57,188 nt of DNA from a virus (IMGVR_UViG_2657245570_000014); one strand, 5' to 3'. Positions 1,545-38,803 are shown, counted from the first letter of the stretch. Numbers and translations are program-made. The notes: generated by a model from the letters alone, not told the origin.

Positions 1545-1550
1545 GACACG

Positions 1551-1556
1551 AATAAG
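1551..1556. repeat. Left copy of the flanking direct repeat AATAAG (putative target-site duplication)
   Basis: AATAAG immediately outside the TG terminus; identical hexamer at 38787..38792. Confidence 0.6.
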
Positions 1557-1634
1557 TGATGCGCCGCGCGATAAATGCACTCTATCTTGTGCGATAAATG
1601 GCATCCACGCGGCGTTTCATTATTTGAAAAAGAA

Positions 1635-2207
1635 TTACATTTCAGGTTGCGTTATGACAGTCCCAACAGGGTGATAGCGGTAGATCGTTGACAGTCCAAT
1701 ATCATAGATAATTGCCAGCCGCTTTCTGTCATACCCTTTCTGGAGCAATCTTGCGATCTGCTCATGCTGCTCCTTCGTCAGTTTCGGGCGACGTCCTCCA
1801 ACTCTTCCTTGTGCTCGCGCAGCAGCCAGTCCTGCCAGCGTGCGCTCAACTATCAGTTCACGCTCCATTTCTGCCAGTGCACCCATCATATGAAAAAAGA
1901 ACCTTCCCATCGGAGTGCTGGTATCGATTGAATCCGTCAGACTGCGAAAATTGACACCTTTTGCGCGTAGCTCTTCTGTGAGAGCAATGAGGTGTTTCAT
2001 TCTTCTACCCAACCGATCCAGCTTCCAGACCACCAATGTATCCCCTCTTTTAAGGCACTTTAAAGCGCGTTTCAGGCCTGGTCGTTCCGACTTGGTTCCG
2101 CTCATTTTGTCCTCAAAAATCTGTTCACATCCTGCGCACATTAATGCATTGCGTTGCAAATCTGTGTTTTGGTCATTTGTTGACACACGTATGTAGCCAA
2201 TCAGCAT
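1635..2207 (-). CDS. pin: Serine recombinase / DNA invertase (Pin/Gin/Hin family)
   Basis: N-terminal MLIGYIRVSTNDQNTDLQ resolvase catalytic domain and C-terminal HTH; sits beside the tail fiber cassettes; start taken at internal Met. Confidence 0.9.
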   Translation of the reverse strand: MLIGYIRVSTNDQNTDLQRNALMCAGCEQIFEDKMSGTKSERPGLKRALKCLKRGDTLVVWKLDRLGRRMKHLIALTEELRAKGVNFRSLTDSIDTSTPMGRFFFHMMGALAEMERELIVERTLAGLAAARAQGRVGGRRPKLTKEQHEQIARLLQKGYDRKRLAIIYDIGLSTIYRYHPVGTVITQPEM

Positions 2208-2263
2208 TAAAAATACTCCCTTTTGAGTGGTTAAAGTACTGAGATAATGTGGGGAGGATTTGA

Positions 2264-2289
2264 GAGATAAACGTTGGTTTGGGGGAAGG
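2264..2289 (+). other. Putative invertase crossover site 1 (hix/gix-like)
   Basis: GAGATAAACGTTGGTTTGGGGGAAGG; the AAAC-NN-GGTTT core resembles Hin/Gin sites; the same sequence block recurs at 2778 and inverted at 4389. Confidence 0.5.
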
Positions 2290-2782
2290 CTCTGCACTGC
2301 CTGTTGGTGTGCCTGTTCCATGGCCCACCGCCACACCGCCAGCAGGCTGGTTAAAGTGCGACGGGCGCGCCTTTACAAAAGAACAATATCCTGTTCTGGC
2401 CAGAGTCTACCCGACCCTCCGTCTTCCCGATTTACGCGGTGAGTTTATCCGTGGATGGGACGACGGGCGCAAAGTTGATACGGGGCGTTCATTGCTAAGT
2501 GGTCAGGCTGCAACATTTATTCGTACAGCTTTGCAGGATTATTACGGTTACGATCTGAATACTAATGTCAAAGTAGGTATCGCTTTTGCTACTGCTGATT
2601 CTGTTATAACCGTTGGAAACCCAGCTAATCCTAAAGCAGGAAATAATAGCGATTATGTTCCTGCATCAGCAGATAACTCTATAACGGGTATTCAAAGGAC
2701 AGCGGAGGATAATTTTACCGGGGCATGGATATCAATGCGCCCCCGCAATGTTGCGTTTAATTACATCGTAAGGGCCGCATAA
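2279..2782 (+). CDS. Silent tail fiber C-terminal cassette 1 (no own promoter or ATG start)
   Basis: First ~70 aa (GEGSALPVGVPVPWPTATPPAGWLKCDGRAFTKEQYPVLARVYPTLRLPDLRGEFIRGWDDGRK) almost identical to an internal segment of the active fiber; shared C-terminal NYIVRA; ORF starts at TTG. Confidence 0.7.
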   Translation: MGEGSALPVGVPVPWPTATPPAGWLKCDGRAFTKEQYPVLARVYPTLRLPDLRGEFIRGWDDGRKVDTGRSLLSGQAATFIRTALQDYYGYDLNTNVKVGIAFATADSVITVGNPANPKAGNNSDYVPASADNSITGIQRTAEDNFTGAWISMRPRNVAFNYIVRAA

Positions 2783-2803
2783 AAACGTTGGTTTGGGGGA
2801 AGG
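2778..2803 (+). other. Putative invertase crossover site 2
   Basis: CATAAAAACGTTGGTTTGGGGGAAGG, a direct repeat of site 1. Confidence 0.5.
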
Positions 2804-3266
2804 CTCTGCATTGCCTGTTGGTGTACCGGTTCCATGGCCCACCGCCACACCGCCAGCAGGCTGGTTACAGTGCAACGGAGCTACGTTCACCAAAGAACAA
2901 TATCCTGTTCTGGCCAGAGTCTACCCGACCCTCCGTCTTCCCGATTTACGCGGTGAGTTTATCCGTGGATGGGACGACGGGCGCAAGATTGACGAGGGGC
3001 GTAAGTTGCTTTCATGGCAGAAAGGTACACTGGTCGGCGGTCATGACGATAACGATTCTTCGCTTGATATCTCGTACATGAGTAACGGAAATAATATTGA
3101 CTATGGCGGCGATAAGGTGTTTGCGGGGAATTACCGTAGCGATTATTTGTGGTACGTAATTCTGGGAGGAACAAACAGTCGCGCAAAAGCCGAATTAAAC
3201 GGAGCATTCTTTAACATAACCCGCCCCCGCAATATCGCGTTTAACTATATCGTGAGGGCGGCGTGA
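2793..3266 (+). CDS. Silent tail fiber C-terminal cassette 2
   Basis: Same conserved 70-aa leader and C-terminal NYIVRAA as cassette 1 and the active fiber, with a distinct central region. Confidence 0.7.
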   Translation: MGEGSALPVGVPVPWPTATPPAGWLQCNGATFTKEQYPVLARVYPTLRLPDLRGEFIRGWDDGRKIDEGRKLLSWQKGTLVGGHDDNDSSLDISYMSNGNNIDYGGDKVFAGNYRSDYLWYVILGGTNSRAKAELNGAFFNITRPRNIAFNYIVRAA

Positions 3267-37389: not shown

Positions 37390-37616
37390 TTACGCTATCA
37401 GGTAAAAGCCGGAAATTAAAAGCCTGCCGAATATCTGCCAGATACCTTTTTGCCCGCGCCTTTTTTAAGAACGTCAGGCCGGGGATCACAATTGGTGTTA
37501 TTGCCGGACGCGAACAGGTTGAAAAATACATGTCAGGTGCATGGTGGAATAACGACCCTGTCATTGCTGCCCGTAATATTCATATCGAATGGGGAGGTAT
37601 TCAGAATGACTACTGA
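37386..37616 (+). CDS. Hypothetical early protein
   Basis: 76 aa; ATGA overlap. Confidence 0.45.
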   Translation: MITLSGKSRKLKACRISARYLFARAFFKNVRPGITIGVIAGREQVEKYMSGAWWNNDPVIAARNIHIEWGGIQNDY

Positions 37617-37812
37617 AACCATTGTCTGTTTTCTTTTCTGGTATATGTACGCAGGATCATGCAGCGCAAGACTTCATCGTTCCCTGGGCTATGGCAGGCA
37701 CTACGACACCGCGCATTACATCCTGTACATGACCGCCGTCATGTTGTTCTGGCCAGTCACCCTGCCAGCTGCAACCGACATTGTTGCCGACAGACTGAAA
37801 AAAAGGAGATGA
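37606..37812 (+). CDS. Small membrane protein
   Basis: 68 aa; GGGGAGG Shine-Dalgarno; hydrophobic segments. Confidence 0.5.
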   Translation: MTTETIVCFLFWYMYAGSCSARLHRSLGYGRHYDTAHYILYMTAVMLFWPVTLPAATDIVADRLKKRR

Positions 37813-37813
37813 T

Positions 37814-38263
37814 ATGCAGAAAAAACGCCTGATACAGCTTATCCATATTGCCCGTAATGAACTGGGTATGGATGAAGACACCTACCGCCAGATGTTACAG
37901 GGGCTGACCGGTAAAGCCTCAACCAAAGGAATGGATACCACACAACTAAACTGCGTGCTGGAATCCATGAAAAAGAAAGGCTTTCGCGTTAAACCAGCCA
38001 GAAAAGCCAGCTCCGGTTTACCGCTGGATAACCATCCGCAGTCCAGGAAAATTCGTGCGCTATGGCTTGAAATGGCTGCTGCCGGCATTGTTCGTGACCG
38101 TTCAGAAAATGCATTAGCGAGGTGGATCAAGCGGGAAACGGGCATCAGCGCCCTGCGCTGGCTCAGTACTGAACAGGCAAGCAGTGTTATTGAGAAACTG
38201 AAGAAGTGGCAGCGCAGAGCTGCGGGAGTCAAACATGAGCGACCTGAATCAGTTTCGAAGTAA
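37814..38263 (+). CDS. GemA-like regulatory protein (Mu gp16 family)
   Basis: 149 aa; position just upstream of the mor-like gene. Confidence 0.65.
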   Translation: MQKKRLIQLIHIARNELGMDEDTYRQMLQGLTGKASTKGMDTTQLNCVLESMKKKGFRVKPARKASSGLPLDNHPQSRKIRALWLEMAAAGIVRDRSENALARWIKRETGISALRWLSTEQASSVIEKLKKWQRRAAGVKHERPESVSK

Positions 38264-38624
38264 GGGGCCGGAACTCCTGGTGGAACTGGCACAGCATACC
38301 TCTGAGACCGTTCGCGAGATTATTGATATTGAGCCCGAAGTTGCCGACCAGATTGGTCAGGCCGTCGCGAACCGAATGATGCAGGTCTGGGGCGGGCAAA
38401 ACGTTTATTTCCCGATGGGCATGGTATGGAAGGTCAGTCAGCGCGACCGGGAAATCTTCAGGGAGTTTAACGGACGCAACCACCACGAACTGGCCCGCAA
38501 ATTTGGTGTTTCGCTTCAGTGGGTCTACAGCGTGGTTAAGCGGGTAAGAAAAGAAGAACTGGATCGGATGCAGGGCAAGCTATTTGCTGATGAACCCGAT
38601 GCAGATACGGAGAAAAAAGAGTAA
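38235..38624 (+). CDS. Mor-like transcription activator (Mor/C family)
   Basis: 129 aa; C-terminal HTH-like region ELARKFGVSLQWVYSVVKRVRK; last gene of the early operon. Confidence 0.75.
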   Translation: MSDLNQFRSKGPELLVELAQHTSETVREIIDIEPEVADQIGQAVANRMMQVWGGQNVYFPMGMVWKVSQRDREIFREFNGRNHHELARKFGVSLQWVYSVVKRVRKEELDRMQGKLFADEPDADTEKKE

Positions 38625-38786
38625 TATCTGCAATCAGGCTGGCGCGAGTTCTGTTTTTTTTCGGGCCGGTCTGATTTTCACATACTGTAAGGTTATTGCA
38701 TATTCCTCCTAGTCTCTTCCCATTTTGACCCAGTTCTTCCCATAAATATCTCACTTATTCCCTGTCATTTATCTCAAGTCTAATCA

Positions 38787-38792
38787 AATAAG
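38787..38792. repeat. Right copy of the flanking direct repeat AATAAG
   Basis: Immediately outside the CA terminus; matches 1551..1556. Confidence 0.6.
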
Positions 38793-38803
38793 CGGTGTAG
38801 CCA

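Follow-up and report, generated by a model that had tools for sequence, protein, structure and literature searches.

A BcepMu-type transposable prophage inserted into the ninE gene of a lambda-like prophage of Escherichia coli

INTRODUCTION

Insertions of phage Mu into the lambda prophage are familiar from the classical lambda::Mu genetics of the 1970s, in which the target operon was inactivated or showed polarity and the lambda genome became oversized. Mu duplicates 5 bp of its target site. The Burkholderia phage BcepMu (NC_005882) is the type species of Bcepmuvirus. According to the KS10 paper (PMC2628397), its relatives carry a Tn552-related transposase with an Rve catalytic core, and their termini are TG...CA. 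Here we analyze a stretch of viral DNA of 57,188 nucleotides (nt) (IMGVR_UViG_2657245570_000014), called the window below, in which a transposable prophage of 37,230 bp lies within a lambda-like prophage. The arrangement is best explained by an intact temperate phage of the BcepMu lineage that transposed into the ninE gene of a pre-existing lambda-like prophage at att-lambda, and we assign this reading a probability of about 0.93. In literature searches we found no paper that describes a BcepMu-type phage inside a lambdoid prophage.

RESULTS

Boundaries of the insert and the empty site

Nucleotides 1557–38786 of the window form a discrete insert, which starts with TG (first bases TGATGCGCC) and ends with CA (last bases TCTAATCA). 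It is flanked by two copies of the hexamer AATAAG, at 1551–1556 and 38787–38792, which represent the target-site duplication. The left junction (1551–1577) reads ...GTTCATGACACG AATAAG and continues into the element as TGATGCGCCGCGCGATAAATG..., while at the right junction (38766–38802) the element ends in ...CATTTATCTCAAGTCTAATCA and is followed by AATAAG CGGTGTAGCC.... A first-pass annotation of the window had described a Mu-like transposable prophage of about 37.2 kb, nested in the nin region of a lambda-like prophage and bounded by TG, CA and identical hexamers. The nesting, the length and the boundaries are all borne out here.

The empty site was reconstructed by joining the flanks with a single AATAAG in a 1000-nt construct, which was compared with 5,426 complete E. 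coli genomes. The rebuilt site is 100% identical over the 1000 nt in 25 of the 25 genomes among the matches listed. The construct matches 138 records at 99% or higher, and at least 80% of it is held by 2,905 of the 5,426 genomes. When the insert and one AATAAG are taken out of the window, the remaining 19,952 bp align with E. coli strain 144 (NZ_CP023364) as a single block with 99.98% identity, 4 mismatches and no gaps. The flanks therefore join into a contiguous lambdoid nin region around one hexamer, and the same terminal nucleotides bound the element in five other copies at unrelated loci (see below). The empty site, the boundaries and the terminal repeats support entry of the element into the nin region by transposition. 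The reverse order of events, with a lambdoid phage integrating around the transposable phage, is rejected, since int is adjacent to ybhC at att-lambda and the two flanks fit together exactly. A megablast match of an ST131 left end starting 11 nt outside the insert is a chance extension, as direct comparison gives the same TG start.

The interrupted gene

Annotated ninE encodes 56 amino acids (aa) and begins MATPLIRVMNGH. Its ATG overlaps the stop codon of ybcN (TAATG, 38802–38806), and on the minus strand AATAAG reads CTT ATT, which is codons 5–6 of ninE. The insertion is thus inside ninE, after codon 6, and not in an intergenic position, and ninE is destroyed. The 5' stub (38787–38804, minus strand) retains codons 1–6, encoding MATPLI, and ends at a TGA supplied by the phage terminus. 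The 3' part (codons 5–56; 1398–1556, minus strand) is fused in frame to 16 codons of the phage end, giving an open reading frame (ORF) of 68 aa at 1398–1604. ninE is dispensable in lambda.

These details change the placement of the insert between ninB and ninE in the first-pass annotation. The gene on the right is ybcN, whose match to Pfam NinB is below threshold (20.6 bits against a cut-off of 23.8, E 4e-4), with most of the profile covered. ybcN appears to be the positional counterpart of ninB and at most a distant relative. Joining the flanks does rebuild the nin region, as expected by that annotation, but not as a short ninB–ninE spacer.

The 68-aa fusion ORF is specific to the junction and is on record in one public assembly, the draft GCA_001462975.1 (contig LNHR01000081.1). 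Both junctions are absent from the 5,426 complete E. coli genomes, and the left junction has no exact match in one genome per GTDB species or in IMG/VR viral contigs.

Termini and subterminal repeats

The termini are imperfect inverted repeats that share GATAAATG at an equal offset, as noted earlier, and the outermost copy occupies nt 14–21 from either terminus. This motif has 7 matches in the window against 1.73 expected, a count reached in 0 of 100 shuffled sequences. Three of the 7 matches are terminal: two on the plus strand, at 1570–1577 and 1593, and one on the minus strand at 38766–38773. A search for repeated motifs near the termini revealed two subterminal repeats at each end, phased by 23 bp. 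At the left end they are direct repeats on the plus strand, GCGATAAATGCAC (1568–1580) and GCGATAAATGGCA (1591–1603). At the right end, read inward on the minus strand (38740–38775), they are GAGATAAATGACA (38763–38775) and the degenerate GAGATATTTATGG (38740–38752). By analogy, the left-end repeats are presumed to be transposase-binding sites.

BcepMu has the same TG...CA ends and paired subterminal sites. In both phages the first 45 nt at each end consist of TGA followed by paired sites G(A/C)GATA(A/T)(A/T)T, which are at nt 12–20 and 35–43 in all cases. The left end of BcepMu (GAGATA) resembles the right end of the window element, and its right end (GCGATA) resembles the left end of the window element.

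In the outward transcript across the left terminus (1500–1650, minus strand), the two transposase-site repeats are predicted to fold into a hairpin of −41.9 kcal/mol (z = −3.3) without a U-tract. From this folding model, transcription leaving gin for the flanking DNA might be attenuated by the hairpin.

Relationship of the element to BcepMu

The transposase TnpA (589 aa; 31836–33605, plus strand) is a DDE enzyme with rve as its sole Pfam match; its best PHROG match is 310, transposase. The MuA-specific domains (Mu helix-turn-helix and Mu-transpos_C) were not detected in it by Pfam. In a tblastn search of 50,697 phage records, TnpA is 68.3% identical to BcepMu gp09 over 98% of its length and 57% identical to a group of Pseudomonas phages. 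No Mu record is found among the matches listed or in the organism tally of this search, in which the only Escherichia records are PhiKM and Phi06_2974 B. Searching the PDB by sequence with the transposase and the B-like ATPase was uninformative, and no MuA chain was matched.

The early operon (30358–38624, plus strand) reads towards the nearer, right terminus, and the repressor, lysis and virion genes are divergent from it and extend leftwards to 1635. Gene for gene, the window element and the BcepMu gene table are mirror images, from the Mor/GemA terminus to the tail-fibre terminus. BcepMu genes 1–17 have the early layout of the window element, in the order Mor, GemA (genes 1 and 2), B-like ATPase, TnpA, gp10/DUF3102 and helix-turn-helix genes. 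The divergent order is also the same: repressor, holin–SLT–Rz, gp27–TerL–portal–F–G, head, P2-type tail and tail fibre. The window element therefore has the gp09-type transposase with an rve core of the Tn552/IS1604 type, the inverted early operon, the TG...CA ends with paired repeats, and the synteny of lysis genes, Mu-type head and P2-type tail that characterize BcepMu. The term Mu-like of the first-pass annotation holds in the sense of a transposable phage with Mu-like genes, while membership in Mu proper does not; the transposase, the duplication and the early operon place the element in the BcepMu lineage.

Gene content of the transposable phage

Pfam and PHROGs matches confirm the DDE transposase, B-type ATPase, Mu-type Gam, GemA, Mor and complete virion set proposed before, and show a complete set of lysis, head and contractile-tail genes together with a Gin-like invertase. 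The early operon is preceded by a promoter-like site, TTGACA-17-CATAAT (30282–30310, plus strand), and begins with a gene for a 62-aa Cro-like helix-turn-helix protein (30358–30546). This protein had been labelled ner, which is not supported: it matches HTH_31 and PHROG 925, and Pfam gives no match to the Ner family. Next to tnpA lies the gene for an AAA+ transposition ATPase of the AAA_22/ExeA type (388 aa; 33616–34782, plus strand), which occupies the position of BcepMu gp08 and may be a functional analogue of MuB. A Mu-type Gam host-nuclease inhibitor (35082–35612, plus strand) follows. GemA (37814–38263) and the Mor late/middle activator (38235–38624), both on the plus strand, are the last genes before the right terminus.

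The candidate immunity repressor (153 aa; 29846–30307, minus strand) is a helix-turn-helix protein divergent from the early operon, and no S24 peptidase domain was found in it. Between the repressor and the holin is a variable cargo slot (27677–29849) with three genes, encoding 158 aa (plus strand), 193 aa (minus) and 328 aa (minus), which match PHROGs 3787, 12025 and 10002. Neither PADLOC nor PHROGs assigns a function to them; the 158-aa protein has two marginal PADLOC matches (E ~0.01). The same slot is filled by a Dam-methylase cassette in JJ1887, A31, AH21B060 and PhiKM, and it could be a swappable module for defence or exclusion. The lysis cassette (25819–27546, minus strand) consists of a holin (27196–27546), an SLT transglycosylase (26453–27193) and an Rz-like lipoprotein (25819–26469).

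The virion genes (3273–25185, minus strand) run from right to left in the order Mu gp27-like small terminase, TerL, portal (DUF935), F, G, protease/scaffold and major head protein, and then the tail genes: sheath, tube, tape measure, P2-type baseplate (D, V, W, J, I), tail fibre and tail-fibre assembly protein. The tape-measure gene (10455–13667) contains 3.0 copies of an in-frame repeat of 261 bp (11056–11851) with 97% identity. Across copies of the phage the tape-measure protein has 1070, 983, 896 or 821 aa, implying that tail length varies through repeat number. At the left end, a Gin/Pin-type serine recombinase (190 aa; 1635–2207, minus strand) reads outward towards ninE...Q. Beside it is an invertible tail-fibre segment (2271–4407) with two silent C-terminal cassettes, 2279–2782 and 2793–3266, both on the plus strand. 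The expressed tail-fibre gene at 4134–4407 has an inverted repeat in common with each silent cassette, one of 274 nt (90% identity) and one of 229 nt (92%). The segment together with the recombinase (1635–4407) is an invertible system with more than one cassette.

The lambda-like host prophage

Strain 144 carries a complete, uninterrupted lambda-like prophage of ~50.6 kb between ybhB and ybhC, the classical att-lambda site. Its PGAP-annotated genes include Nu1/A-type terminase, lambda-type head and tail genes, iss, Q, ylcG, rusA, ybcO, ninE, ybcN and an inverse autotransporter, followed by P, O, cII, cro, cI, N, gam/bet/exo, xis and int. In the window, Pfam matches were obtained for N, Q, O, P, RusA, YbcO and cI with an S24 peptidase domain. 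The combination of cI(S24)–cro–cII, O/P, N, Q, nin genes and int/xis adjoining att-lambda is that of a lambdoid phage. The control genes (cI with S24, N, O, P and Q) look intact.

Downstream of the insert, at 156–1444 on the minus strand, are ybcO (1115–1405), rusA (756–1118), ylcG (619–759) and the antiterminator gene Q (156–533). The rest of the host prophage in the window (38804–55770) consists of ybcN (38804–39259), the inverse autotransporter gene (39558–43466), P (43706–44407), O (44404–45303), cII (45336–45635) and cro (45742–45969), all on the minus strand. On the plus strand are cI (46048–46755), N (48227–48535), then recombination genes, xis and finally int (54700–55770). ybhC (55905–57188) adjoins the prophage and marks att-lambda.

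The inverse autotransporter (1302 aa), located in the pR operon between P and ybcN, resembles intimin and invasin; it combines an IAT_beta domain with five Big_1/Invasin_D3 repeats, and its gene contains an internal duplicated segment of ~357 bp with 95% identity. It looks like an adhesin moron. Between this gene and ybcN there is a strong GC-rich bidirectional hairpin, GGGAGGGCTTAGCCCTCCC (39527–39545), with T-tracts on both strands, which is probably a nin-region terminator for N to override. Other accessory genes are found at 46885–47784 (plus strand, 299 aa), in the rexAB position beside cI, and at 53452–54054 (minus strand, 200 aa), between a TraR-like gene and xis; neither has a PADLOC match. 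In all, PADLOC gave no functional assignment for three accessory genes of the host prophage.

Other copies of the phage in E. coli

Six full copies were taken from other genomes and five of them were scored, the copy in strain A31 being left unscored because it has no end-probe match at 2 or fewer substitutions. The five sister copies lie at unrelated loci, begin TGATGCGCC and end TCTAATCA, with identical terminal nucleotides. Each is flanked by a duplication of 6 bp (GAAGAA, AATAGC, ATCAGC, AGCATC and AGTTCC). Together with the window, this makes 6 bp in 6 of 6 copies, and the duplication length is therefore a family property. The transposase gene is present in 639 of the 5,426 complete E. 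coli genomes (~12%), at 708 places and up to 3 per genome. Matches to the right end break off at the CA, and the sequence beyond it belongs to at least 12 different genes, for example rlmI, hycE, a fimbrial usher gene and a TonB-dependent receptor gene.

All 53 annotated proteins of the copy in strain 23AR0806 are found uninterrupted in the window, and 48 of them are 100% identical over the full length. The differing ones are the tape measure (99.9%) and the products of four tail-fibre or assembly genes of the invertible region. This intactness and near-identity point to a recent insertion by an active phage. The E. coli copies, such as the aroA–ycaL prophage of ST131 strain JJ1887 and that of 23AR0806, have the same termini and 6-bp duplication and differ in insertion site. 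They also vary in tail-fibre cassettes, tape-measure repeat length and cargo cassette, the latter with Dam methylase in JJ1887 and PhiKM. In strain AH21B060 (NZ_CP196273) the same phage type again lies inside a lambdoid prophage (NZ_CP196273.1, 2926700–2971700). This nesting is an independent event, in which the target is exo in the pL operon, the duplication is AGTTCC and the cargo cassette is different.

DISCUSSION

Origin of the nested arrangement

In the proposed sequence of events, a cell already lysogenic for a lambda-like prophage at att-lambda would have been lysogenised a second time, by a phage of the BcepMu lineage. By analogy with related systems, the rve-type TnpA would bind the two 23-bp-phased subterminal sites at each TG...CA end, probably acting with the adjacent AAA+ B-like ATPase, which would select the target. 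TnpA would then join the element ends to target phosphates staggered by 6 bp, and gap repair would produce the AATAAG duplication. The nesting arose by chance, from a phage with almost no restriction on where it inserts, and not through a dedicated phage-in-phage system. It is ordinary because transposable phages insert near-randomly in prophage-rich genomes, and a second nesting was found.

Several features would fit a different assignment, in which the insert would be related to coliphage Mu proper (Muvirus) and have the MuA/MuB/Ner/c organisation. Mu-type Gam, GemA, Mor, gp27, portal (DUF935), F and G are all present, the ends are TG...CA, and a Gin-like invertase stands beside an invertible tail-fibre segment just as at the Mu G segment. 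However, the transposase has rve only and none of the MuA-specific Pfam domains, and its tblastn matches lead to BcepMu-type and Pseudomonas phages with no Mu among those listed. The duplication is 6 bp, not 5 bp, in all six copies. The early operon runs towards the nearer end, divergent from the late genes, in place of a left-end c/ner with collinear early, middle and late genes, and the small helix-turn-helix protein is outside the Ner family. We consider membership in Mu proper highly improbable and in effect refuted, because the transposase is 68% identical to BcepMu gp09. Nor is it at all credible that the arrangement is an assembly chimera or the product of homologous recombination between prophages. 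The source is a draft assembly with a contig ending a few kb past Q, which would suit a chimera, but the junctions are clean, the 6-bp duplication is perfect, the terminal nucleotides are the same as in five independent copies, and the flanks rejoin to known sequence without any gap. For recombination, there is no homology between element and flanks to drive an exchange.

One may also ask if the nesting is a functional rewiring, a natural regulatory chimera of two phages rather than a neutral accident. Placed inside the pR operon, a transposable phage without an SOS-cleavable repressor would become SOS-inducible. Transcription antiterminated by N would come in at its right end and read its late genes in the sense direction, and once the lambdoid circle had excised, O/P-driven replication would amplify the inserted phage with it. 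Host Q would in turn be driven by outward transcription from gin or the late operon and no longer by pR. The late genes and gin are indeed co-oriented with the host pR operon, an S24 domain is present in the host cI but not in the transposable-phage repressor, the stretch from gin to ninE has no predicted canonical terminator, and a lambdoid exo gene is the site of another, independent nesting. Even so, we regard such rewiring as very unlikely. The junction-specific ORF is known from one public assembly only, and neither junction occurs in the 5,426 complete genomes, so nothing suggests selection or spread. About 12 flanking genes were sampled and one other lies in a prophage, which is close to the expectation for random insertion, as prophages make up 5–10% of the genome. 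Outward transcription across the left end meets a stable hairpin. The counts of terminator-like sites across the 37 kb (28 versus 18.4 ± 4.6 and 22 versus 19.4 ± 4.5 in shuffled sequence) are near, or only about 2 standard deviations above, the shuffled expectation and are uninformative here and on polarity alike. Chance transposition of a BcepMu-lineage phage into ninE stays the preferred explanation.

Predicted consequences for the two phages

With transposition into ninE, 37.2 kb separate pR/N/O/P from ybcO–rusA–ylcG–Q, and polarity on Q, as proposed in the first-pass annotation, is plausible; expression of Q on induction would therefore probably be delayed or blocked. The composite prophage measures ~50.6 kb + 37.2 kb, or ~88 kb. 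Lambda-type cos packaging tolerates ~105% of genome length. At ~88 kb the outer prophage should therefore form no viable full-length virions, even with Q made, and we infer that this limit is a firmer argument for disablement of the outer prophage than polarity. The inner phage, with every gene intact, is apparently unaffected.

Some considerations weigh against this picture. Polarity on Q may be incomplete, given the high processivity of N-modified RNA polymerase, and gin reads outward with no canonical terminator predicted before the element end or ninE, so Q may receive some transcription. The packaging limit is taken from phage lambda and not from this phage, and analogy is likewise the basis for TnpA binding at the repeats and for the role given to the B-like ATPase. 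The lysis, head and tail genes of the host prophage lie outside the window, which starts just downstream of Q.

The locus is a natural, clean example of one temperate phage inactivating another by transposition. The phenomenon is conceptually already known: the prophage type is known and common in E. coli, its way of inserting is familiar, and chance is enough to make the configuration recur. For E. coli BcepMu-type prophages, literature searches found no description of the 6-bp duplication, the 23-bp-phased terminal sites conserved with BcepMu, the swappable cargo slot adjacent to the repressor, the multi-cassette invertible tail-fibre segment or a transposase prevalence of ~12% among complete E. 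coli genomes. In prophage annotation, such an 88-kb 'prophage region' should be read as two phages, the outer one almost certainly grounded.

Comparison with known transposable phages

The closest sequenced phage is Escherichia phage PhiKM (PQ738613), with 98.3% nucleotide identity over 91% of a 24.8-kb query (14000–38786), and GenBank taxonomy places it in the genus Bcepmuvirus. Compared with BcepMu itself, the conservation in gene order and termini is not accompanied by nucleotide similarity found by megablast. The hosts differ as well, being Burkholderia for BcepMu and E. coli for the window element. The window element alone has the Mu-type Gam, a DUF2786/DUF7168 gene and the Gin-driven multi-cassette invertible tail-fibre segment, in place of which BcepMu has an acyltransferase gene, and the content of the cargo slot is different.

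Coliphage Mu and the window element have in common the temperate transposable lifestyle, TG...CA ends, Gam, GemA, Mor, Mu-type head-morphogenesis genes, a Gin-type invertible tail-fibre segment and near-random choice of target. What sets the window element apart is a transposase that is not MuA-like in sequence, an inverted early region, a duplication of 6 bp in place of 5 bp and the absence of Ner; com/mom are not seen in it either. Finally, the lambda::Mu insertions were laboratory constructs made with Mu, whereas the case in the window is a natural event that involves a BcepMu-type phage.

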